Origin: Albugo candida
Lineage: Eukaryota
Reading direction: 5' to 3'
DNA length: 64,000 nucleotides
Assembly (NCBI GenBank): GCA_040437565.1
Contig: JBDOQK010000019.1
Location: forward strand, 62,001 to 126,000
Made by a program: the position numbers and the translations under genes. The notes beneath the pieces were generated by a model. That model saw nothing but the letters and a program-made list of their open reading frames with translations, searched no databases and was not told the origin of the DNA. Numbering within the stretch: the first letter of the stretch is position 1; every line of letters begins with the position of its first letter. Positions 15,234 through 41,424 of the stretch are shown here, one piece after another.

Positions 15234-16833
15234 TCATTCGTCTTCCTCTCGAATTCCTCTGCTTGACAGCAGCTCATGACCTGGCGCAATCAAATGCGCT
15301 GAAAGCGCATTACCCGATAACGTCAGCTTTCTCAGCATCTTTGTGGTATGAATTGGATCAAACGGAAGTTCCCGCAGTTTGTTATTTGCTAGTAGTAAAT
15401 GCCTAAGTTTTGGCAGGGTACTAATCTGCCTTGAGACCGAAACGATAGCGTTATTCTCCATATTTAAAATTTCAAGTTGTAAACACCTTCCAAGCGTGGC
15501 TGGAACCTTATGAAGCCGGTTGTAGGACAGATAGCATTTTCGTAAGCATTGGAGCGCATCAAAGCTCTTCGGTAGCTTGGTCAGCTGGTTGTGCTCAGCA
15601 TGGAGTATCTCTAGTTTCTTCAATCGCACAAACGAGTCGGGTAGTCTCTCGAGTTGATTTTTTGGAATATCCAACTCTCGTAGATTTTCAAGTAGTCCGA
15701 TCTCTTCAGGAAGAGTTATCAGCTGATTCTCATCCAGGTACAATTCCTCCAAAAGAATTAAATGGCAAATGCTTTTTGGTAGGACCTAGCACGCCATTCG
15801 AATCAGACCCCGCGGTTTCACGCTAGCGACTGACCTCAAGTTTATTTCGATGAAGACATAAGCCCTGCAAACACGTTTGTAATCGTCCAAGGTCTTCGGG
15901 TATGCCGTGCGCTGTGAGATTATTATCTTCTAGGTACAAGCCTTCCAGATGTTCCAGCTTCCCTAGAGATTTAGGCAATGCTTCTAGTTGATTTTCACGC
16001 AAATAGAGTTCTGTGAGTTGTGTCAGGAGACTGAGCTCTTCCGGAAGCTGCTCGAGTCGATTATTATCAGCTGCAAGCATTTTCAAATTTGCAGGAGCCA
16101 TTTCCCAAAGCTCGGGTGGAATTCTTCTCAAATCTTTAGCTGAAAAATCAAGCTCCTCGATCGTGTTCCATTGATCCACATCCTGTATCGGCTCTTCTAA
16201 ACTCACATCGTACTTCTTGATAAACATTTGAACATTTTCCTCGCTCATTTCAGGCACATCGNNNNNNNNNNNNNNNNNNNNNNNNNNNNNNNNNNNNNNN
16301 NNNNNNNNNNNNNNNNNNNNNNNNNNNNNNNNNNNNNNNNNNNNNNNNNNNNNNNNNNNNNTCGAATCAGACCCCGCGGTTTCACGCTAGCGACTGACCT
16401 CAAGTTTATTTCGATGAAGACATAAGCCCTGCAAACACGTTTGTAATCGTCCAAGGTCTTCGGGTATGCCGTGCGCTGTGAGATTATTATCTTCTAGGTA
16501 CAAGCCTTCCAGATGTTCCAGCTTCCCTAGAGATTTAGGCAATGCTTCTAGTTGATTTTCACGCAAATAGAGTTCTGTGAGTTGTGTCAGGAGACTGAGC
16601 TCTTCCGGAAGCTGCTCGAGTCGATTATTATCAGCTGCAAGCATTTTCAAATTTGCAGGAGCCATTTCCCAAAGCTCGGGTGGAATTCTTCTCAAATCTT
16701 TAGCTGAAAAATCAAGCTCCTCGATCGTGTTCCATTGATCCACATCCTGTATCGGCTCTTCTAAACTCACATCGTACTTCTTGATAAACATTTGAACATT
16801 TTCCTCGCTCATTTCAGGCACATCGCGAGGCAT
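15234..16833 (-). CDS. Leucine-rich repeat protein (SHOC2/PIRL-type repeats), interrupted by an artefactual duplication and gap
   Basis: Tandem LxxLxLxxNxLxxLPxx repeats, one intron near 15787-15835, likely ATG 16833. Confidence 0.85.
15798..16825. repeat. Gap-flanking direct duplication (15798-16261 = 16362-16825), probable assembly artefact
   Basis: Identical copies on either side of a 100-N gap. Confidence 0.9.
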
Positions 16834-16921: not shown

Positions 16922-19900
16922 CTACTTCACAAAGCTCTCTGCTATCGCTATTGCTTCTTCAATGTGCTCGATGGTTTTGGCTTGGCCATTCGCATTGAGA
17001 GCGCTTTTGCCACCACCTTTTCCATTCATAGGCTTCATTGCTTCATTCACCCATTGACGTGCATCAAGTTGTTTCTTGTCAGCGTGATGCTGACTCACTT
17101 GGCAAAAAGCAGCAGTCTTGTTGGCATCATCATCCGTGCTGAAGACCATAAAGCTTCCTTCAGGAAGTACGCTGCTCATCGCCGCAAGGATTTCTCGACC
17201 AAGTTTCACGTCCGTTCCAGCTTGCATACGAGCGACTAGAAATTCTGACGATTTCTCACGAGTATCTTTGACTTGTTTGATTGCGTTCTTGATCGCATCC
17301 GCTGCCCGTAGCGCAGCTTCTTTCTTTTTGAGAGCCTTCACTCGATCCACTAGTACATCCAGCTCCTTCCTAAGCTGATCCTTGAGCGGTAGAGATATCA
17401 GAGCGACATCTAATATCGGTCGGAAAGCAGTGACATTTGCGATAAAGTCGCTGTCTTGCATCTGTTTGATGCAGTCCAACTGTTTTTGTAGCTCTTGACC
17501 ACGTATTTCGGCATTTGAAGCCTCCTCACCTGTATACGCGGAAATACGACGAATGCCTTTGGCAATTGCGCTTTCTTCGTACAATATAAACTTTTTCGCT
17601 TGTTTTGTGTTCTCCAAATGCGTTCCACCACAAAACTCAACAGAGAAATTGCTCCAAGTGCTATTTTCTGGATCTTTGAGCATCTACATTGATCAATGAC
17701 AGTGGATTCGATCCGATGATAGAAAGAAAGCGTACCGGATCAATGGCTTGACCGATTGAAACAAGACGCACAATGTCAGGGTACGTTTCTCCAAAGACTG
17801 CACGGAGCCCTTGAATTCTTCTCGCGTCAGTCTGAGAGACGTTTTTTGTAAACACTTGCAGTTCCTGTTTGATCGAATCTTCGCACATGTTTTCGACAGC
17901 TTGCAATTGGCTTGAAGTGAGAGGCTTGTTTGTCGTGAAATCAAAGCGCATTTTAACATCATCGACTAGGGAGCCTCGTTGATCCACATTCGTCAGAAGC
18001 ACTTTACGCAATGCAAAATTCAGCACGTGGGTCATTGTATGGTTTGGAGCTATCTTTCTTCGACGTTCGTAATCCACTTGGCACGATACATCTTCGCCGA
18101 CCTGAAGCGAGCCGCTTTCTAAAGTACCAGTGTGCAAGACGTACCCAGCATAAGACTCAACCGCATCGATGTTGAATCGAGTGCCAACGGGCTGATCCTT
18201 TAGCAAGCTTCCGGTATCGTAAACTTGGCCACCTGCCTGAGCATAAAAGGATGTTTGATCCAAAATGATCCCGATTCGATCATGTTTCTGCGGCGTAACG
18301 ATTGATACAAATCCACACGATGACTCTGTCGTGGCAAAAATGGCAACCACCTTTGCATGGAGTGTCTTATTCCATTCGTACTTTGGGTCATCGTTGGTAA
18401 TTGATATTCCTTGCTCCATAAGCGCATTCGTTTCTTTTGCTTCCAGAACTAATGGGCGAGTGCCATTTCCAGAACCTTTTTTCCGATCTTGTTTAGACCG
18501 CTCACTCTGAAGCTTCATTTGCTCTTCATAACCTTCGACATCAACGATCAATCCTTCTTCTTCCGCCATAATTTGTGTCAAATCGATAGGAAATCCCATA
18601 GAATCATACAAAAAGAATGCATCTTTGCCAGAAATGACGAGTGCCTTTTGATTGTCTCGTTGGTTGGCTCCTCGGACGCTTTCAACGATCTTTCTGAACT
18701 TTTCAATACCTTTGTTAAGTGTTCTTCCAAATGATTCTTCTTCTTCCAGAATTGCTTCTTCCACTTCTTTTTGCTTGGTCTTTAATTCTGGAAAGGTATT
18801 GTGCATCATATTCACAACCACTTGCACCAACTGATTCAGGAAACCTTTGGGAGCATTCAAGAATTGCTGACCGTAGCGGACAGCACGCCGCAAAATACGC
18901 CGTAATACGTATCCTCTACCATCATTACTCNNNNNNNNNNNNNNNNNNNNNNNNNNNNNNNNNNNNNNNNNNNNNNNNNNNNNNNNNNNNNNNNNNNNNN
19001 NNNNNNNNNNNNNNNNNNNNNNNNNNNNNNTTTCTGCGGCGTAACGATTGATACAAATCCACACGATGACTCTGTCGTGGCAAAAATGGCAACCACCTTT
19101 GCATGGAGTGTCTTATTCCATTCGTACTTTGGGTCATCGTTGGTAATTGATATTCCTTGCTCCATAAGCGCATTCGTTTCTTTTGCTTCCAGAACTAATG
19201 GGCGAGTGCCATTTCCAGAACCTTTTTTCCGATCTTGTTTAGACCGCTCACTCTGAAGCTTCATTTGCTCTTCATAACCTTCGACATCAACGATCAATCC
19301 TTCTTCTTCCGCCATAATTTGTGTCAAATCGATAGGAAATCCCATAGAATCATACAAAAAGAATGCATCTTTGCCAGAAATGACGAGTGCCTTTTGATTG
19401 TCTCGTTGGTTGGCTCCTCGGACGCTTTCAACGATCTTTCTGAACTTTTCAATACCTTTGTTAAGTGTTCTTCCAAATGATTCTTCTTCTTCCAGAATTG
19501 CTTCTTCCACTTCTTTTTGCTTGGTCTTTAATTCTGGAAAGGTATTGTGCATCATATTCACAACCACTTGCACCAACTGATTCAGGAAACCTTTGGGAGC
19601 ATTCAAGAATTGCTGACCGTAGCGGACAGCACGCCGCAAAATACGCCGTAATACGTATCCTCTACCATCATTACTCGGCATGATTCCATCTGCAATGGCA
19701 AATGTCAAGGTACGAATGTGATCGGCGACAACACGATACGCCATATCTTTGTTGTTTGCATCTTCTGCCCCCAATTTCCCCTCGTACGGTTCAGCTTTCG
19801 TGATGGTTTGTATCGTTTGGAAAAGCGGCGTAAAGACATCCGTATCGTAGTTTGACGTTTTTCCTTGAAGAATAGATGCCAACCGTTCAAATCCCATCCC

Positions 19901-20851
19901 GGTATCAACGTGTTTATTCGGCAGCGGTACCAATTTTCCCGAGTTCTCCCGATTGTACTGGATGAATACATTGTTCCAAATCTCGATAACATCTGGGACG
20001 TCTGCATTCACTAACGCAGATGCATCTCGATTCCCAAGCCGATCATAATGAATTTCCGTACAAGGACCACAAGGCCCAATATCCCCCATTTCCCAGAAAT
20101 TATCCTTGCAACCAAAGGGTAGGACCCGCGATGGAGGCAAATATTTCAGCCAAATAGCACGTGTTTCCTCGTCAGGTAAAAGCTGTTGTTTTGGATCTCC
20201 ACCAAAATACGTCGCATACAATCGATCTGCGTCAATTCGATAAACTTTTGTCAGCAAGTTGAACGACATCTCAATCGTTTCTCGTTTGAAATAATCGCCA
20301 AAGCTCCAATTTCCAAGCATCTCAAAAAACGTATGGTGATAAACATCTTTACCCACATCGTCGAGATCATTATGCTTCCCTCCTGCTCTGATACACTTTT
20401 GAGAATTAACAGCGCGATTCAGCTTGCTCATCGGATGGTTCGGGTCCACTTGGCCAAGGAAAATTGGCTTAAATTGGTTCATTCCTGCATTAATAAACAG
20501 CAAAGTTGGGTCATCCAAAGGAACGACCGGGCAAGAGGGATAAAAAGTATGAGGGTGAGAGCTATGGTTTTTAAAGTAGTTTATGAATGTCTCGCGAATG
20601 CGTGTAGCCGGCCATTCCTCCGATGAGGCCTCCATGTTAGAGGATGCACTGCTTGAATTAAGATGAGATTCGTGATGTTGAGATTTTGTGGCAATATGCC
20701 TGTCAATTGCGGATTCTAAAACACTTATTTTACTTTCTCGCTCATTCAAACCCTTTTCTAAGGAATGGATACGAGCGTGCAAATGATCGAGGGCCATTTT
20801 GTACCTCTTTGTGACGCGCCGGGATGCTGGTTGGATGAAAAGAAATCGCAT
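16922..20851 (-). CDS. AARS: Alanyl-tRNA synthetase (~1043 aa after removing the duplicated block and the 52-nt intron 17684-17735)
   Basis: [35 protein letters not shown], editing-domain NHTMTH and EFCGGTH, C-terminal GKGGG. Confidence 0.97.
18285..19676. repeat. Gap-flanking direct duplication (18285-18930 = 19031-19676), probable assembly artefact
   Basis: Identical copies around a 100-N gap inside AlaRS. Confidence 0.9.
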
Positions 20852-21793
20852 AACAGTGTGCGCGTTACATTATACAAGGATGCAAGAATTTCACGATTCC
20901 GTGCGCTTCCGATAAACGCGATGAAATGGATATCATCATACAGAAAAGAAGAAGGGATATATTGTATGGTTTAATGCGCATGAACTAGCAAGAGACGTGT
21001 ATGAATGTAGATTAGTTCAAGTAGAAACGGAGCCGAGTCTACAGAAGTAAANNNNNNNNNNNNNNNNNNNNNNNNNNNNNNNNNNNNNNNNNNNNNNNNN
21101 NNNNNNNNNNNNNNNNNNNNNNNNNNNNNNNNNNNNNNNNNNNNNNNNNNNCAGCGCGATTCAGCTTGCTCATCGGATGGTTCGGGTCCACTTGGCCAAG
21201 GAAAATTGGCTTAAATTGGTTCATTCCTGCATTAATAAACAGCAAAGTTGGGTCATCCAAAGGAACGACCGGGCAAGAGGGATAAAAAGTATGAGGGTGA
21301 GAGCTATGGTTCTTAAAGTAGTTTATGAATGTCTCGCGAATGCGTGTAGCCGGCCATTCCTCCGATGAGGCCTCCATGTTAGAGGATGCACTGCTTGAAT
21401 TAAGATGAGATTCGTGATGTTGAGATTTTGTGGCAATATGCCTGTCAATTGCGGATTCTAAAACACTTATTTTACTTTCTCGCTCATTCAAACCCTTTTC
21501 TAAGGAATGGATACGAGCGTGCAAATGATCGAGGGCCATTTTGTACCTCTTTGTGACGCGCCGGGATGCTGGTTGGATGAAAAGAAATCGCATAACAGTG
21601 TGCGCGTTACATTATACAAGGATGCAAGAATTTCACGATTCCGTGCGCTTCCGATAAACGCGATGAAATGGATATCATCATACAGAAAAGAAGAAGGGAT
21701 ATATTGTATGGTTTAATGCGCATGAACTAGCAAGAGACGTGTATGAATGTAGATTAGTTCAAGTAGAAACGGAGCCGAGTCTACAGAAGTAAA
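20410..21793. repeat. Gap-flanking direct duplication (20410-21051 = 21152-21793) of the AlaRS 5' end, probable haplotype/assembly artefact
   Basis: One visible difference between the copies, a synonymous SNP (20570 T / 21312 C). Confidence 0.9.
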
Positions 21794-22134: not shown

Positions 22135-23460
22135 ATGATTTCGTGTTGGAGACTCTTAGCTGTGATTATTGGAACACTACAGCACAACCGATTGTCAAAT
22201 GGTCTTCCGATGAATTCGTCGCCTTACTACCCATCCAGGTCACGTCGCCTTGCCGAATGTCCCGCTGCTGCAAGTGAAGGTCCTCATATTGACGTAGAAA
22301 CCATCAAGCCAACGAATCATGGATTCGATCGTCGAAACTTGGAGCCTGTCGAGGCAACAGAACTACAACATCTTGAAGAACTACTTGGGATCAAATTAGA
22401 GTACGATCTTCGAGAACTGGCTACTTTGGCGTCCAGAAATATCACCAAAATCCCATGGACTAGCAGCTACTGGCCAAACTGGAGAAATGGTATAGGACGT
22501 CGATGGAGAAATAAAACAGTCAGTAGTGCCGCTGAAAAGTATGGACAAGCTTACAAAGTTGCAGATTTCTTCGAACAGGTGACGAAATATCGAGGTGTAA
22601 AAAGTGAACATGTCGGTCCTCGCGTAGAATGCAGCTCCATTGACGATTGTGACGCTGCAAGTCTAGTCCAGTACGGTTGTGCGAAGCTGAAAGAAGAGAC
22701 GTCTGGAATTTGTATGCTAAAATGGTATGGACTCTGTCATGCTTGGGCTGCAGCATCATTGATGGAAGATGAACCCATATGTCCTGTGACTGTAGGTAAA
22801 TTGGTTTTTGAACCACTTGATATTAAAGCTTTGCTTATACAAGCATATGATGGAGCGGTGGTGGAAACCGCATTTATTGGTCAGCGTTGTAAAACCGACA
22901 ATAATGATACCGACAAATATGGTCGATATATATCAGCAGACCGACGTGACATTAACGCAGGTGCATTCTTCGTCGCTGTTGTGAACTTGATTGGGCTACA
23001 TGATAGAGGTTTTATAATGGACACCGACGCAGGTCGTCCAGTCTGGAACCAGCCAGTATTTGGGTACAACATCGAAAGGTTGATTATGGTGAACCCAACA
23101 AAAGTTGCGAAGGAGTTACTGAAGGCTGAAAAATATCCTTTCAATCCAAACATGGTGAGATTGGCGTATGTTAAATTAAGGGTTTACTGGATGGGCGAAC
23201 AAATAACGAATAAACCTTCCATTTCAACAGGTCGGTATAAAAGTGCTACTAAATCATCAAAATATCATATGCTGTTAGAGCTCAGCGAGGACTTCGAGAT
23301 CTTGGGAGGAGAATTTATTAAGAGTTCCTTGAGAAGACATCCTGATTTCATTTGGATCCTGAAGGGCCCCGCTCCAGACGACACGGTTACTGGTATGGGC
23401 CTTAATTTAGGTGACGTCAGAAAACTTGTGAAAAGATCTCGAGAATGTGAAAAGAAATAG
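22135..23460 (+). CDS. Secreted transglutaminase elicitor (GP42/M81 family)
   Basis: Hydrophobic N-terminus, PWTSSYWP, catalytic WYGLCHAWAAAS, Pep-13-like VWNQPVFGYNIER, ILGGEF...HPDFIW. Confidence 0.93.
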   Translation: MISCWRLLAVIIGTLQHNRLSNGLPMNSSPYYPSRSRRLAECPAAASEGPHIDVETIKPTNHGFDRRNLEPVEATELQHLEELLGIKLEYDLRELATLASRNITKIPWTSSYWPNWRNGIGRRWRNKTVSSAAEKYGQAYKVADFFEQVTKYRGVKSEHVGPRVECSSIDDCDAASLVQYGCAKLKEETSGICMLKWYGLCHAWAAASLMEDEPICPVTVGKLVFEPLDIKALLIQAYDGAVVETAFIGQRCKTDNNDTDKYGRYISADRRDINAGAFFVAVVNLIGLHDRGFIMDTDAGRPVWNQPVFGYNIERLIMVNPTKVAKELLKAEKYPFNPNMVRLAYVKLRVYWMGEQITNKPSISTGRYKSATKSSKYHMLLELSEDFEILGGEFIKSSLRRHPDFIWILKGPAPDDTVTGMGLNLGDVRKLVKRSRECEKK

Positions 23461-25616: not shown

Positions 25617-26837
25617 TCAACCTGTGCATGCAAGTGACGTGGTCAGCAAAGCTTTAACTTGGCTATATCGTATGCCCGTGGCATACGAAACCCAATCGCC
25701 TTCAGGAGAGTTTCTCGCAATCCAGAAAAAGTCGGGGTGATCTTCGACACTATTCAGCACCCATTCACCTCCAATAATGCGACCAGAAGCATCCATTTCT
25801 AGCAAGTACGTGTACTCAATGGGACGAATGTATTGGTTGATCAGTAGAGGATTGATTTTTCGAGGATCTGTCGTAGTCGTCACGTAGTACACAATTATGT
25901 GGACAAATGCCAGATACACCATTGCTGGGTTGAATGGATACGTCGGGGAGCCAAAGTACATCTGTGCAGCGTGTGCGGGATCCACAAGCTCCATTTGAAC
26001 CACTTCGTACCCCATTATGGGGAAATTCCAAATCTCGCGGCCCTTTTCAATGTCACAAATGACTGCTTGTTTGAAATTTCCCAGTACGTTTGCAAGCACG
26101 ATGTGAAATAATCCAGGCCCGACGTCGCGGAGAGTAGCATCGAGAGGCCTGCCAAACTGGTCTTTTGCCACATTATCTGGACCATCATAACGTTGCCCCG
26201 TCACGATTGTGTCTTGCTGGCGCTCATCGTATAGAAGAATGAGAAGAGCTTTGATGTCTACAATTTGAAAAGTTACTCCATTCAGTGTTACTGGGCAACG
26301 TGGTTCCTCCTCCACAACGGATGCTAGGGCTAACGCATGACACAATCCAAACCAATGGGGAACACAGTAGCCTTGTGTATGCTGCATACGGAATGAACAA
26401 GTGGAATTTCCTGGCAAATTCAAACATTCAATATCACTGGCACATGGAGGAAAGGCTCCACTGGTGGCATCGACTCCATATTTTACAGAAACACGGTCCA
26501 TCAGCTCTGTAGCGTCTAAACCATAGGCCATTGCGTACTTTTCAGTGGCGCTGTAGTCGTATGGATTGTAGCGAAAGTTGGCACTGTCTTTTTGAGCCGC
26601 CAAGTAATCACCAGCCCATGGAGGATTCTCAAGTCGCACACTTAGGTATGGAAATGCGCTCAACGTGTAAAAGTTATCGATAAGATCTTTTTGGAAGTGT
26701 TGCTTTAAAAGGCTCAGATCATCGGTGGACATTTCCAATGTTCGGGTGGCTCTGCTGGAAAAGTTACCAGATCGGAACGTCGCAGTGGATGCATGTACGC
26801 ATAATACTGTCAGGCAAAATGATCTCACTGGAAGCAT
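25617..26837 (-). CDS. Secreted transglutaminase elicitor (GP42/M81 family), second divergent paralog
   Basis: Signal-peptide-like MLPVRSFCLTVLCVHASTA, WFGLCHALALAS, IWNFPIMGYEVVQ, IIGGEW...HPDFFW. Confidence 0.92.
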   Translation of the reverse strand: MLPVRSFCLTVLCVHASTATFRSGNFSSRATRTLEMSTDDLSLLKQHFQKDLIDNFYTLSAFPYLSVRLENPPWAGDYLAAQKDSANFRYNPYDYSATEKYAMAYGLDATELMDRVSVKYGVDATSGAFPPCASDIECLNLPGNSTCSFRMQHTQGYCVPHWFGLCHALALASVVEEEPRCPVTLNGVTFQIVDIKALLILLYDERQQDTIVTGQRYDGPDNVAKDQFGRPLDATLRDVGPGLFHIVLANVLGNFKQAVICDIEKGREIWNFPIMGYEVVQMELVDPAHAAQMYFGSPTYPFNPAMVYLAFVHIIVYYVTTTTDPRKINPLLINQYIRPIEYTYLLEMDASGRIIGGEWVLNSVEDHPDFFWIARNSPEGDWVSYATGIRYSQVKALLTTSLACTG

Positions 26838-34783: not shown

Positions 34784-37700
34784 ATGGATCCTTCCAATGT
34801 GAGAATTTTAGTCGTAGAAGATGACGCTTTCACTCGAACTGCTACAATAGACATACTTTGCTCTTGCAAATACATTGTTTCCGCCGTCGAAAATGGGAAA
34901 GAAGCGCTTCAAACACTGCAAGAATCGCATCAAGAATACGATCTTGTTTTGTGTGATGTGATGCTTCCTTGTATGACTGGAATTGAGCTACTGGAAGCCA
35001 TCCAGGCACATCCCACTCGATTTAATCACATTCCTATCGTCATGACATCCTGTAATGAAGGAATGGACGTTGTGAAGAATTGCTTAAGCAAAGGCGCAAA
35101 AGATTATTTAATCAAACCCATTCAGGTCAACACTGCAAAGACGCTTGTTCGGCATGTGTGGCTGCATCGACAGCAACAAAGTAATCAGCAAAACGCACAA
35201 TCGGAAGTATCGAACGGGGTACACTTTGTACCTTGTTATTCTTCGATATGGCAAAATCTTGAGATGATTCGACAGATTGGAAGAGGAACACATGGAAATA
35301 TAATGCTTGCCAAGCGCAAAGAAGATGGAGCGATTGTCGCGATTAAACGGATACAGACTGCGGATTTTAGTGAACAAGGAAAGAAACAAGCTGATAATGA
35401 GGTCGTATTGCTAAAGTCGCTGTATCATGTAAATATCGTGCGCTTTTACGATCATTTCATGCTCGGTGACGAATTAAATATTNNNNNNNNNNNNNNNNNN
35501 NNNNNNNNNNNNNNNNNNNNNNNNNNNNNNNNNNNNNNNNNNNNNNNNNNNNNNNNNNNNNNNNNNNNNNNNNNNNNNNNNNTGTCGCGATTAAACGGAT
35601 ACAGACTGCGGATTTTAGTGAACAAGGAAAGAAACAAGCTGATAATGAGGTCGTATTGCTAAAGTCGCTGTATCATGTAAATATCGTGCGCTTTTACGAT
35701 CATTTCATGCTCGGTGACGAATTAAATATTGTGATGGAATACTCGGATGGAGGTAATCTTCGCCAATTGATAAGATTGAGAGCGAGAGATGAGATGGGAC
35801 CGTTTCCAGAGACTGTTATAATGTCGTGGTTTGCACAACTCGTGCTCGCAGTTGCGTATATTCACGGCAAGAACGTACTTCATCGCGACTTGAAAGCACA
35901 GAACGTTTTTTTGACGCGGAAAAATGTTATCAAATTGGGCGATTTTGGCATTTCCAAAGCTTTGAGCGATGATGTGACAGCCAACACAGCTTGTGGGACG
36001 CCAGAAAGTATGTCTCCGGAAATTTGTCGAAGTGAGCCTTACGGCAAGAAATCAGACGTATGGTCTCTTGGCTGCATTCTGTATGAATTGATCATGCTCT
36101 CACGACCATTTGAGGCCAAATCGCTTTCAGAAATCTTCACAAAGATTTGCAAAGCAGAATATGATCCGATCCCACAGCGCTTTTCGAGGGAATTGCGACT
36201 TTTAGTCCAGCTAATGCTGCAATTGGACCCAAACAAACGTCCGACAATCGACGATATCTGTCGATTTCCGTTTGTACAGGCTCCTATCCAGACCTTCCTA
36301 TCAGCACATGTATCGGAATTCCAAGAAGCACTGGAACTCGAGGCAAAATTACATCAGCCTTCCCTCTTTAGCGCTGAAACTTCGATAGATACATTGAATG
36401 GATCGGAAATACATCAAGAAGGTCTCAAACATCTTATTGACAACCAGCAAATCATCCAATCTCTCGAGAAATACACTGAAACGAAAACTTTGAAATCCAA
36501 GCTCACAGTCTCAACCTCCTCACTCAACGTTAAAGACAGCACTTTGCAGCACCAAAGAAACAACCAAATATGCGACGTTCGAGTTTTGACGAAGAATACG
36601 TCGGTGCATGAAGGAACACTTGAGGCACATAAGATGTCTTCCGAGACGTCATGTAGTCTCAGTAGTATCTCCAAGTCTCTACCGACCTCAGAATATCAAG
36701 AAATGGACCTTGCAGATGACTTTCGTGGGCTTATTTGCGTGCAAGACATTCGAAGTGGATTGTTTTCAATTCATATCGCTTGTATTTCAGGCGAAGATCT
36801 TCTTTACAATCTCAAATGTCAAATGGGGAAATCAGTAGAGGAAGCGTATGATTTCTTGGATGTGCTGCTTCACCATCGCCGTCTCAAAGTGGTCGTAGCG
36901 GATGATATGAATGAGCCTAACATCCAAAGCAGCAGCACGTTGATCCGATTCCAAGTGGACGAGATTTTCGAACCGATGAATATGCGATACATTTACAATT
37001 ACCCGGCTCCAGAAACGCCCATGCAAATAGCTTTGGAAGTGCGTCACTGCATACAAAAGATACATGAGAGCAAGCAGTATCCCGACCGAATCAGTATGGG
37101 ATTTCAGGGCTCCTACACCGTGACAAAATACTCAATGCATCGACATCGGTCTTTCAGTAAAGGAATAGATTCGGGGAATCCCGCAGGGAGCAATGAGGTA
37201 GCTCTCTCTTTAGCATATCGCCATTTCCTCCGATCAGTGGCCAAGCTACAAACTGTGGAGTTGAATAACGTATCAAAGCACGATCGTCAAGCTTTCTTCA
37301 TCAACGTGTACAACACGATGGTCTTGCACGGGATGATCGAATATGGGATTCCACAAAACAGCACGCAGTATCGAAAATTCGAGAAAGATGTCCAGTATCA
37401 GATTGGAGCCTACCGATTTACTCTCAGCGACCTGAAACATGGAATCATACGCTGCAATCGAAAGCCTCCGAGCAACTACTGGGAACGTCAATTCCAGGCT
37501 CAAGACCCTCGACTTCAGTTTCGATTGCATATTCGCGATCCGCGCTCCTTACTCGTTCTCATAGAGCCATGTGAGCCATTGATCGTCCCCAATGAAGCAG
37601 CTATCATACATGCGGGGAGGACAGATACCGATTTGGAAGAACAGGTCGGAGCGTATTGTGCTTGTCGTGTCGAGATTCACATCGAAACGCAAGAAGTAGT

Positions 37701-37845
37701 GCTTCCACGATTATTCCGGGTGTTCAGAACCGATTTTGGAGCGGCCGAACGAGACGTGATATCGTGGCTTTCAGAGTATGTGCCTCACCTTCCTTCGAAT
37801 TTTACAAGTTATCGAATAAAGTATGCCGGAGGAATTGTTTGTTGA
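34784..37845 (+). CDS. Response-regulator receiver - NEK (NIMA) Ser/Thr kinase - DEP - DUF547 fusion protein (~937 aa after removing the artefactual duplication)
   Basis: REC: ILVVEDD, LVLCDVMLP, IVMTS, DYLIKP. Kinase: GRGTHG, VAIK, HRDLKAQN, DFG, PYGKKSDVWSLG. DUF547: AFFINVYN, LKHGIIRCN. Removing 35483-35730 leaves one 2814-nt ORF. Confidence 0.88.
35335..35730. repeat. Gap-flanking direct duplication (35335-35482 = 35583-35730), probable assembly artefact
   Basis: Identical copies around a 100-N gap. Confidence 0.9.
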
Positions 37846-38010: not shown

Positions 38011-41000
38011 ATGGGTCCAAAAAAGCTTTCGGTATCGTCTTTGAATGAGAAAAGGAATGCGAGCGTTCAGGAGAGAATAGTAACTAATGTATCGCCAGTT
38101 TTTCTCAAATCGACTGATTCATTGCATAGCCATTACCCGTGCGAGATGTCCCGGCACTGGAGACGGTCTTATCGCATTATACGCCGCCTTCAAAGCCAAA
38201 AGAGCTGTTCTCAGAGTGGAACACGAGCTTTGGTAAGCCCATGCACCGCCATCTCGCATCGTTTCTCTACAATTCTTTGTGTTTAGCATCGGAGCATTGG
38301 TGTTCCGAGTCTACGCCGTATGTCGACCCCACACCTCTGGAAGCATTTTTATGCATGCAGGCAAATCCAACACACATCAAAAGCCTCTTTGACGTTGAAT
38401 CGCTTCTATTGTAGCCATATGATTGCCATCAAGTGTCTTGGATGCGGCTTCAAGAGGTAGCGCTATGCAACGTAAAGGCTTATACGCCCAACAGTGCCGT
38501 AAATGCTCGCGATCAATCAGCTCCAAAAATCACGAGCGACGGACCTTCACATCAAGTGAGTCGAATGTATGTGTTCATCCCTTTCTCCTCTTTGATTCTC
38601 TGTACAGAAAGCTGTGGATGCTCCGATTTTGATCGATCCCGAGACCATGCAACGATCGCAAGAGCTCGATTCTCGATTTTTTTTCCAACGAAAATGGACG
38701 TGTGAGCAGCTGGAGCAATTGAAAGCATGGGAGATCAATGAAACACGGGTAAGAAGAGAGCGGGAAGCACAATCCCGTGCATGGCTTGCGTACGAGGATA
38801 CTCTCGCATGTCATCTCGCAAATCGAACACCGCATTTCTTCACCGATGAGATCGAAATTGACCCAAACGACCTTATCGACGACGAAGATGACACAACTCA
38901 CACCTTTGACGTTTTACAACCTCCTCCATCTGCAGTGTCGCTGATCAACACGCTCTGTAAACCTCGTTTTCCGGAAGGGAGTCTTATTCAATGCGACACG
39001 GCTTCGGTCTTTCGGGTCATCCAACAGCTACTAAAAAAATGGCAATGCCAACCCTTTCAATTTCCCTGGGAATCCATCTACCCGCAGGATTTGCGTGGTG
39101 CACCTTTGTACAATGCGGGAGCGCGATACTCCATACGGCTTTATGTATTAGGCAGATGGAGAAGTATTGACGTCGATGATCGGCTTCCCGTCGATGAGGA
39201 AGGTAGGTCGATCTACCTGTCCACCATGCATCCGTCAGACTTGTGGCCATCTCTCTTGTGTAAAGCTATCTCCAAGACCTTCTACTGGCTTCGTGAGTCT
39301 TTAAGTCTCCAGGATGAAGCCATACATATCGGTCACTTGATCACGTGCCTTACGAGTTGGAAATTAGTTCCATTCTCAGGCTCCCTGAATTCATTTTTCG
39401 ATGCTGAGAAACTGATAGCGTGCCCAGAAGCCTTAGAAGAGCCCGATATCCTCCCAGCGGTACTTATATGCGGTCGAGAAGGAGATTCAAAGAATTTGCG
39501 GCCTCGAGAAATCGCTCTTGTTGAAGAGCTTGTACAGGACGAAGTGAGCCTCATCGGATTCTACGATCAATACAGCGAGTTTGTACGCATCGAAGACACC
39601 AACATGTCCGCCTTCTACCTGTTTCTTATGTATCCTCCTGCCAAAGCAGTAGCAGAAATGATGCACACGTGGACAGAAGCCCCGACTGTGAACGACAATA
39701 CGGCTTCTGTGATCCATTCTTCTCCACCAAATTTTATCTCGACTCGATTGCTGGTTCTCAAGCATTGCCAGAAGCCAAAGTCTCACACTATCGATTTAGT
39801 TTTGACGTTGTCACGTGTACCGCCAGTGGAAATTCACGCTGCAGATCTATCGGAAGTATCTTCGAAAGCTTTAGGCGTTGCTAAAGATGCAAGTCTTTTT
39901 CTTATAGAGCAGGACGTCTATCGTCAAAGACCGAGTTCCAACTTCATCACTGTCGATACCACACGATCTGTGCGCCTCTCACTCGATCATAATGTAGATC
40001 ATATCTTCCGCATATCTCCGCTGTCGAATCTGGTGTACGGGTTCGCGTTGCAGTCTGAGGCCTTCTCTAAGCACCAGGAACCTCCAGAGATGAAGATCAT
40101 GGAGATTGCTGATTTTTGGAAAGAGGAAGGGCTAAACACAATTAAGACGCGTGGTACGACGGGTGTGCTTCGACAGAGTTCGTGGACGATCTTAATGATG
40201 CAAGTCATCAAAATCCAAAACAGTAGTGAGGAGCCTGTTTGGCTTTGGACCAATTTGGATCTATCGGATGGATCAATAGCTCCAAATGTATCTCTGAGCG
40301 TTGTCGATAACAACACTTGTACTGTCATTACTCGATGTCCGCTTTTGTATGATCGAATCAAGCTCTGTGAAGGAGAAGACCGCGCAGTAGTTGGGCCTTT
40401 TACAATCCTACTTGAATGTCACGCTCCTGATCAGTTGGACGTGATTCCTATCACTTGGGAGCTTTCCATCGCGACAAATTGCGAATTTACGAGTTCTCAG
40501 GTACACGATCCACTGTCTCGTGTCGAGTTTGCTGGGCCTTACACACCCAATCGGTCAATGGTTTTGTTTCGAGACACACTTTCCGTGTCGAAATCAACGA
40601 CTCTGACGAGTGTACAGGCTCAGCTGATGACAGATGATGAGACCGTGTCCATTGTCAATGATCTCGCTGTAAGATTCGATATTTTCGAGTCTGGAAGCGG
40701 TCATCTGCTATCTTCACTGTCAGCGATCGGACCGAAAGCATTGCAGCTTCCTTGGCAATTCGGACAGTCGGAAGGGTGCAGTAGTTTGACCGTTGTAGCG
40801 AGCATCGACGAGATTTTGGGTCCTGTACCAGAGGATCTACAGGCTCGAGTTGCTTTCCATTCGTCTTTCTCCACGCCTTTGGCCGGGGAGGAGCCTAAGG
40901 CTCGAACCAATTCACAAGGTATCTATTGGCATCTCACTTGCTTCTCCACGGAAAACGTACGATTCGAGCCTGACGTATCGAGAGAGAGGGAGTTCGAGTC

Positions 41001-41424
41001 GATCGTGGAAGGATGGCAACAATGCGGTAAACATCGCGACGCAAATGGAGCGATTTCGAGGCTTTTTTTTCTACGAGAGCCCGAGCTTTCAGAATTGAAA
41101 TCGCGCCAAGAAAATGTCAGTGAGGATACACTGCTCAAAACTCAGAGACGTTTGATTCCCGTCAAAGGAGAAGGCAACTACATCCATCAAATCGCATCGT
41201 CGAATCCGATTCAGCGCATAAAACTTCCGAATGAGATTGAACAGGAAGAAGAAGAGATTCTGCAGACAATGAAAATGGATGAGGTCGCTTGGACAGAACG
41301 ACAAGCGGCACGGATCGGTACCAAGCAAACGTACACGGACCAAGTGAGTGAGCTTTGGTCACAAATACATATTCGAAGAGCTCAATTGTCGGAGCAGTGG
41401 GAATCGTTCCAAAATGTAAATTGA
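38011..41424 (+). CDS. Androglobin-like / atypical calpain-domain protein, with short 5' exons
   Basis: PLYNAGARYSIRLYVLGRWRSIDVDDRLP...LWPSLLCKAISK resembles the ADGB/calpain-7 CysPc-like segment. C-terminal YWHLTCFS...DVSREREFESIVEGW...RDANGAISRLFFL resembles the ADGB C-terminal block. Confidence 0.65.

Follow-up and report, generated by a model that had tools for sequence, protein, structure and literature searches.

Does an oomycete protein that carries a receiver domain (REC) in front of a NEK kinase convert a His-Asp phosphorelay signal directly into Ser/Thr phosphorylation? This question is raised by a single-exon gene at 34784..37845 of the forward strand in a stretch of 64,000 nucleotides of Albugo candida (contig JBDOQK010000019.1, positions 62,001 to 126,000), hereafter the window, which encodes a 937-aa protein composed of REC, a NEK kinase, a DEP-like domain and DUF547. 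An earlier note, made from the sequence alone, had proposed that phosphorelay input could switch a membrane-targeted NEK, for example in zoospore or flagellar control. Our own reading, to which we assign a probability of about 0.55, is that a histidine kinase with a PAS array would pass phosphate through a fused histidine-phosphotransfer domain (HPt) to Asp58 of the receiver, that Ser89 and Tyr108 would shift the α4-β5-α5 face, and α5 in particular, to gate the NEK, and that DEP-DUF547 would place the kinase. The phosphotransfer, its donor, the coupling, its direction and any membrane targeting are what we infer here. The reading draws on the conserved catalytic set of the receiver, the constrained α5 and β5, the HPt-bearing histidine kinases of oomycetes, the position of the Phytophthora infestans ortholog as that species' sole receiver-bearing eukaryotic protein kinase (ePK), and a catalytically complete kinase.

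Gene model

In the assembly the gene is interrupted by an artefact at 35335..35730, found by repeat comparison and in contigs from public sequencing runs, in which a 100-N gap (35483-35582) is bordered by an exact 148-nt repeat, 35335-35482 being identical to 35583-35730. The halves of the open reading frame (ORF) around the gap, of 233 and 704 residues, join to 937 residues, and this join differs from the recorded A. candida protein P0003 (CCI40740.1, 937 aa) at 12 positions, none of them in REC. The earlier note had likewise removed 248 nt to obtain one intronless ORF and had named long reads or cDNA across 35335-35730 as a check; contigs from all four public runs that we used, which come from three studies, bridge the region by jumping from 35334 to 35583 and omit exactly 248 nt. 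Exact overlaps of 148-1724 nt lie across seven of the eleven N-gaps in the window, each of 100 N (at 16262, 18931, 35483, 43230, 45608, 49173 and 57526), and the scaffolding artefact is therefore systematic. The run contigs, the exact repeat and these recurring overlaps together identify the 248-nt insert as a scaffolding artefact and the gene as one intronless ORF. An intron at this place, for which GT..AG ends exist at one shifted cut, was rejected because DNA-type runs omit the segment too and the omitted part consists of N and duplicate. We also rejected separate REC and kinase genes and a genuine tandem duplication of the 148 nt.

Two of the runs, both from one study, gave contigs that begin some 50 nt ahead of the ATG, span the whole ORF and omit a 50-nt GT..AG segment at 38080..38129 (+), into which the other two runs read. 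This difference suggests that the former contigs derive from spliced RNA, the label of these two runs as RNA being a guess only and none of the runs listed for the region being recorded as RNA. The segment would be an intron downstream of the stop codon, in either the 3' untranslated region of the REC-NEK gene or the next gene; the RNA-like contigs are 6.2 kb long and extend past the gene, so that transcript ends are not defined by them.

The receiver domain

The receiver occupies residues 1-128 (34784..35167, +) and was identified by Pfam (Response_reg, PF00072, E 6e-24), by its modelled fold and by conservation. All the motifs that had been read in it earlier (EDD, LCDVMLP, MTS, KP, CLSKGA and HVW) are present. 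Canonical receivers are defined by five catalytic positions, namely DD, D, T/S and K, together with a switch residue at K-3 (PMC8510515, section 4). In the Albugo protein the five are E12 and D13 (within E12-D13-D14, 34817-34825), D58 (34955-34957), S89 (35048-35050) and K111 (35114-35116), and the K-3 position holds the aromatic Y108. Among the 50 family rows with REC, E12, D14, D58, S89, Y108 and K111 are present in every one and D13 in 49; a Pro at D+4 (P62) and a Gly at D+8 (G66) each occur in 30 of 30. The secondary structure assigned by DSSP to the second predicted model follows the (βα)5 order, and a fold search with the modelled REC returned receivers as the top structural matches (Z 13.7, root-mean-square deviation 2.1 over 91 residues). 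The same catalytic set is kept in P0278 and P0365, two homologs that are 31-32% identical and are described below. The phosphoacceptor site that had been read in the domain is thus intact and strongly conserved across the family rows.

Conservation within the domain is uneven. In a 48-row set, from which two fragments and two rows lacking REC had been removed, and with element borders that we set ourselves, the invariant positions number 11 of 12 in α5, 6 of 7 in β5, 8 of 17 in α1 and its loop, 3 of 15 in α2 and 2 of 15 in α3, and the α4-β5-α5 output face is the most conserved part of REC. When the donor-docking and output faces are assigned from established receiver structure, this contrast of high values in α5, β5 and α1 with low values in α2 and α3 marks these as the constrained faces of the domain. 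Between REC and the kinase lies a Gln-rich linker (35168..35260, +), whose length in the alignment exceeds that of most oomycete orthologs by about 17 residues.

The NEK kinase domain

The kinase domain (residues 160-414; 35261..36273, +) is interrupted by the assembly gap and is supported by Pfam, motifs, alignment and PDB matches, with HRDLK from 35881, DFG from 35941 and the activation-loop residue T319 at 35986. Its Pkinase match has an E-value of 6e-60, the top 16 of 23 PDB sequence matches at E <=1e-35 are NEK1, NEK7 or NEK2 (best 189 bits, versus 134 for PLK2), and fold searches of predicted models, which covered NEK and REC, confirm both. With these nearest entries, and with its P. infestans ortholog PITG_03934 classed as OTHER/NEK, the proposed NEK assignment stands. 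K188, the αC Glu E206, HRDLK, DFG and an APE-like SPE are all present, the kinase being catalytically complete as had been proposed, and K188, E206, HRD, DFG and T319 are invariant across the family.

Two features had been overlooked in the earlier note. The NEK P+1 motif GTPYY, as in NEK1 and NEK7, is replaced by GTPES in 49 of the 51 rows with residues there, the other two being fragments; a GTPYY-type P+1 loop is typical of NEKs and not strictly defining. The longer stretch GTPESMSPE (35995-36021) is common to oomycetes, the ciliate-like homologs discussed below have GTPYN, and substrate choice may differ. The second feature is an Arg at position 167 in the glycine loop (window position 35283), where Lys is found in all four runs and in 49 of the 49 family rows that cover the site; it could reflect strain variation or a mistake close to the end of a contig. 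Compared with human NEK1, NEK2 and NEK7, which are the best PDB sequence and fold matches and share the intact catalytic motifs, the Albugo protein is distinguished by its N-terminal receiver, GTPES for GTPYY, a His in the glycine loop and the DEP-DUF547 tail.

The C-terminal region

The kinase is followed by a poorly conserved and probably disordered linker (residues 444-555; 36361..36696, +; predicted local confidence (pLDDT) below 50), a degenerate DEP-like domain at about residues 556-645 (36697..36966, +), and DUF547 at residues 745-874 (37264..37653, +), with homology in the alignment that reaches about residue 920. DUF547 is secure (Pfam E 8e-22, and present in 30 of 30 aligned family members), as had been stated. 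The degenerate DEP proposed by the earlier note is valid at family level, since 20 of the 30 orthologs aligned have a DEP match at E <=0.05 (best 1.4e-7); in the Albugo 937-aa protein itself Pfam detected none. In P0278 and P0365 DEP scores above the cut-off at the corresponding place, and the top ESM Atlas match of the C-terminal part is a DEP-DUF547 cluster (score 0.94) with DEP on 54% of its members. DEP is the least conserved domain of the protein, which weakens the membrane-targeting part of the earlier proposal. No PDB sequence matched the last 388 residues at E <=1.

Distribution in oomycetes and earlier records

A search with the C-terminal region (1778 candidates) gave 33 proteins, of which 31 have REC, kinase and DUF547, and the 23 that carry an organism name are all from oomycetes (Albugo, Pythium, Phytophthora, downy mildews and Saprolegniales). 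The REC-region search (273 candidates) gave 47 family members and 18 bacterial-type receivers, with no plant pseudo-response regulator (PRR) or ARR among the 273. Albugo has a second copy (P0005, P0224), which groups with the copy in the window and is more conserved; the window copy is the faster-changing paralog, its REC being 74% identical to that of P. sojae compared with 80% for the second copy.

The earlier note had left open whether the fusion was already catalogued. It is: the ortholog PITG_03934 (897 aa), which agrees with the Albugo protein in sequence, architecture and the REC and GTPES motifs, was tabulated as OTHER/NEK with 'ResponseReg' by Judelson and Ah-Fong in 2010 (PMC3019232, Tables 2, S1 and S3), and in Table 2 of that paper it is the sole P. 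infestans ePK listed with a receiver. In contrast to the protein described here, that entry gives neither DEP nor DUF547, and in the parts of the paper available to us the fusion is not discussed and lies outside the six domains called novel. The protein is functionally uncharacterised in the literature searched, where we found no functional study of a REC-NEK-DUF547 protein. A full-text search, which leaves supplements and most subscription papers outside, returned no paper naming PITG_03934; in the same full texts, DUF547 together with kinase and response regulator led to fibre-crop transcriptome papers only, and DUF547 with DEP domain to a glutaredoxin review only.

The distribution bears on the zoospore or flagellar control that the earlier note gave as an example, and so on whether the kinase is dedicated to it. 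NEKs have links to cilia (PMC1557398), a P. sojae knockout of an HPt-bearing histidine kinase blocks zoospore chemotaxis (PMC10072465), Albugo makes zoospores (PMC3471859), and a distant homolog appears to come from a ciliated organism. However, identity to P. sojae is 95-98% for REC and 97-98% for the kinase in the orthologs from Peronospora matthiolae, P. destructor, Hyaloperonospora brassicae and Bremia lactucae, and the Peronospora lineage has lost flagellar genes, as shown for other species of these genera (PMC6264045); some Peronospora keep zoospores (PMC3471859). Moreover, PITG_03934 mRNA is flat across stages, with 1.31 in hyphae, 0.78 in sporangia and 0.94 in zoospores (PMC3019232). 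Given retention of the gene in non-flagellate downy mildew genera and this flat mRNA, we reject a function confined to the flagellum and consider a dedicated zoospore or flagellar kinase very unlikely. A role in zoospore chemotaxis downstream of a histidine kinase, or in direction sensing shared by zoospores and germ tubes, is possible.

Candidate upstream partners and proposed mechanism

By the logic of phosphorelays, a C-terminal HPt requires a downstream receiver. Hyaloperonospora arabidopsidis, which has no zoospores, retains four histidine kinases. A. laibachii has two multi-PAS histidine kinases in which HPt is fused to a receiver (PMC6324907), and two of the three P. infestans histidine kinases list Hpt (PMC3019232, Table S2). 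These papers make the upstream partners sought by the earlier note plausible. In P. sojae, knockout of a histidine kinase with HPt led to loss of zoospore chemotaxis and of directed cyst germination, and its authors state that signalling downstream of oomycete histidine kinases is unknown (PMC10072465).

We propose that a PAS-array hybrid histidine kinase would autophosphorylate and pass the phosphate first to the receiver that it carries and from there to the HPt fused to it; the HPt would in turn transfer it to Asp58 of the REC-NEK protein. Ser89 and Tyr108 would then move the α4-β5-α5 face, and α5, which leads into the short linker to the N-lobe of the kinase, would alter a REC-REC or REC-kinase contact. 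This change of contact would gate kinase activity, probably through the activation-loop Thr319, and DEP-DUF547 would position the kinase or bring substrates to it. The job would likely be a general one in directional growth, germination and chemotactic behaviour, and not the building of a flagellum.

Several points weigh against this proposal. Response regulators other than this protein, if oomycetes have them, could be the target of the HPt. Kinase activity may be lowered or redirected by the GTPES that invariably replaces GTPYY. With many of the family rows closely related, the observed invariance is inflated and overstates independent constraint. The REC-kinase linker is longer in Albugo and in one other row, which argues against a rigid contact in cis. 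Finally, the two whole-chain AlphaFold models are weak (predicted TM-scores of 0.44 and 0.38) and carry no information on domain packing; a prediction of the complex between REC (1-132) and kinase (150-443), made with alignments unused, scored 0.00 and gives no evidence either way.

Homologs beyond oomycetes

P0278 (778 aa), found with P0125 as the query among the best 120 of 4173 matches, is a REC-NEK-DEP-DUF547 protein collinear with the oomycete one, to which it is 35% identical in the REC-kinase part and 26% in the DEP-DUF547 part. Its relative P0365 (63% identical in the best segment) lies in metagenome locus L001, a gene-dense eukaryotic contig with the standard code, in which all six genes checked end in TAA stops. 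The IFT139 neighbour on this contig has Tetrahymena IFT-A (PMC10023715) as its best match among solved structures, at 822 bits, ahead of human TTC21B (751) and the IFT139 entry that follows (694). The source of L001 and P0365 is likely a ciliate, as judged from this one neighbouring gene and few reference taxa. The same contig holds an open frame of at least 2452 codons (L001:14980-22335, +) with no Pfam match at E <=0.001.

Related domains are arranged differently in glaucophytes. Upon rescoring of single domains, P0125 of Cyanophora paradoxa has the order kinase-REC-REC-DUF547 and P0105 the order REC-REC-kinase, and a P0125 homolog falls in one cluster with a protein from Gloeochaete. The glaucophyte kinases look CAMK/SNF1-like in our reading of their sequences, and they score 84-140 bits against the oomycete kinase profile, compared with 247-268 bits for the NEK homologs. 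The glaucophyte kinase/receiver proteins (P0125, P0244, P0361 and P0105) were not found in the literature searched; the same holds for the kinase-REC-REC-DUF547 order and for the ciliate four-domain homolog, a form that the tables of a Stentor kinome preprint could list, and the available passages of PMC1557398, PMC4758236 and PMC4558063 hold no such protein.

These arrangements bear on whether REC acts on the kinase at all. The relay could phosphorylate the receiver and leave the rate of the kinase unaltered: together with DEP-DUF547 the receiver might instead control where the protein is located, what it binds or how fast it is turned over, or it might serve as a phosphate sink. Such a role would fit catalytic residues of REC that are conserved while the length of the REC-kinase linker varies, and glaucophyte receivers that adjoin DUF547 and follow a different kinase, so that REC and DUF547 may be the functional pair. 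On the other hand, the order and adjacency of REC and NEK are kept from oomycetes to the probable ciliate, and the helix directed toward the kinase, α5, is the most invariant element; we therefore consider this alternative rather unlikely and favour gating of the NEK by its receiver.

In a tree of 17 DUF547 rows, the oomycete and ciliate-like proteins fall on one side of a long branch, opposite five other DUF547 proteins, with support of 99/98. DUF547 also occurs fused to PF14332 and to trehalase-type domains (P0295 and P0300). The simplest reading of the four-domain proteins would be one ancient gene, and transfer or convergence may instead lie behind the resemblance between oomycetes and ciliate-like organisms. 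We suggest tentatively, as a possibility that falls short of being probable, that REC-NEK-DEP-DUF547 descends from the common ancestor of stramenopiles and alveolates as the principal terminal output of their His-Asp relays, turning aspartyl phosphate into Ser/Thr phosphorylation in one polypeptide, and that glaucophytes assembled a kinase, receivers and DUF547 in another order around a different kinase.

Receiver ancestry and comparison with known systems

The earlier note had found the receiver to resemble plant clock PRRs closely. The resemblance, at 38% identity, is genuine, yet it does not point to PRRs in particular, because receivers of the ciliate-like proteins and of glaucophytes score higher: the oomycete REC profile gave 98-101 bits for the ciliate-like domains, 91-92 for the glaucophyte ones, 88 for one PRR and at most 84 for bacterial-type domains, a label that we gave from domain content in a sample biased to multi-receiver proteins. 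When the Albugo REC alone served as query, certain bacterial-type domains reached 71 bits versus 68 for the glaucophyte ones, and an ESM Atlas search returned generic bacterial clusters only. In the REC search, made over 1.84 billion representatives, the summing of domain scores let multi-receiver proteins fill the list, and close single-receiver relatives may be absent from it. In a 60-row tree the eukaryotic rows all form one group (98/92), which also takes in two bacterial-type rows, and in a 29-row tree they form one with 93/99; the grouping of oomycete with ciliate-like receivers had support of 39/53, a sister relation of oomycete receiver and PRR, represented by one row, was not rejected at p-AU 0.38 (approximately unbiased test), and the branching order among eukaryotes is not resolved by these trees.

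Plant PRRs and type-B ARRs thus share the same broad eukaryotic receiver group, ARR1 being the best PDB sequence match. The PRR P0336 differs in having a C-terminal CCT domain and Glu at the phosphoacceptor site, where the Albugo protein has no CCT by Pfam, an enzyme as output and Asp58, as had been pointed out; on these grounds we rejected membership in the PRRs. The kinship nevertheless suggests another possibility, namely that REC works independently of phosphorylation as a structural dimerisation or docking module like the plant pseudo-receivers, with its Asp serving the fold or metal binding. The strong conservation of α4-β5-α5 is also compatible with a fixed interface, and the flat PITG_03934 mRNA across stages would suit such a module. 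Pseudo-receivers, however, are defined by lost catalytic residues (PMC8510515), and here all are kept in both oomycetes and distant homologs, which makes this explanation improbable.

In some fungi Rim15 already provides a receiver fused to a kinase and with its Asp intact (PMC8510515). Rim15 is likewise a eukaryotic Ser/Thr kinase with a fused receiver; according to the same paper it keeps the Asp in Basidiomycota and Mucoromycota, where the role of the receiver is unstudied. Its kinase is of the Greatwall family and its receiver is C-terminal and often a pseudo-receiver, in contrast to the NEK, the canonical N-terminal receiver and the DEP-DUF547 of the Albugo protein, which is thus no Rim15 member. 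Most likely the closest working analogue, as far as the comparison carries, would be the yeast Sln1-Ypd1-Ssk1 relay on the MAPKKK Ssk2, in which a His-Asp relay also gates a Ser/Thr kinase (PMC8510515): in yeast the receiver is a protein apart from the kinase and the HPt stands alone, whereas in oomycetes the receiver is fused to the kinase and the HPt to the sensor kinase, as if the pathway were compressed into two proteins. Class IV glutaredoxins (GRX-DEP-DUF547) probably share the C-terminal DEP-DUF547 module, which is uncharacterised there too, with a glutaredoxin domain where Albugo has REC-NEK (PMC13621322). Membership in that class was rejected, as none of 30 family members has a glutaredoxin domain, and so was membership in the hybrid histidine kinases, as HisKA and HATPase_c are found in none of the 30. 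What the Albugo protein adds to the known fusions is the four-domain architecture, its probable conservation in a ciliate, the glaucophyte permutation and a testable candidate output for oomycete two-component signalling.

Other features of the window

The gaps with exact overlaps make apparent duplications and split genes in the window suspect. Four ORFs with alanyl-tRNA synthetase domains (Pfam) around two gaps at 16922-21593 (-) are probably one gene that was broken and partly doubled by scaffolding. Two genes of the transglutaminase-elicitor family, at 22135-23460 (+) and 25617-26837 (-), stand on either side of a NOL9/CLP1-like gene (Pfam). Downstream of the REC-NEK gene, within 38080-41424 (+) and with the 50-nt intron, is a 925-aa ORF with calpain-like and weak androglobin-domain matches (Pfam), and the RNA-like contigs extend in its direction.

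Significance

If REC gates the kinase in cis, the protein would be a compact bridge from bacterial-type to eukaryotic phosphorylation within a NEK. To our knowledge animals have no His-Asp relays, hence the interest of such a protein as a target for controlling pathogens of crops and fish. For oomycetes, it is a specific and testable candidate for the last step of the histidine kinase signalling that underlies zoospore chemotaxis and directed germination (PMC10072465). The probable ciliate homolog would extend the question to ciliates, where Tetrahymena has 83 histidine kinases (PMC1557398), and it would put DUF547 in a signalling context. If the reading that we suggest for oomycetes, ciliates and glaucophytes is true, DUF547 would recur in eukaryotic phosphorelay kinases as an output or scaffold domain.

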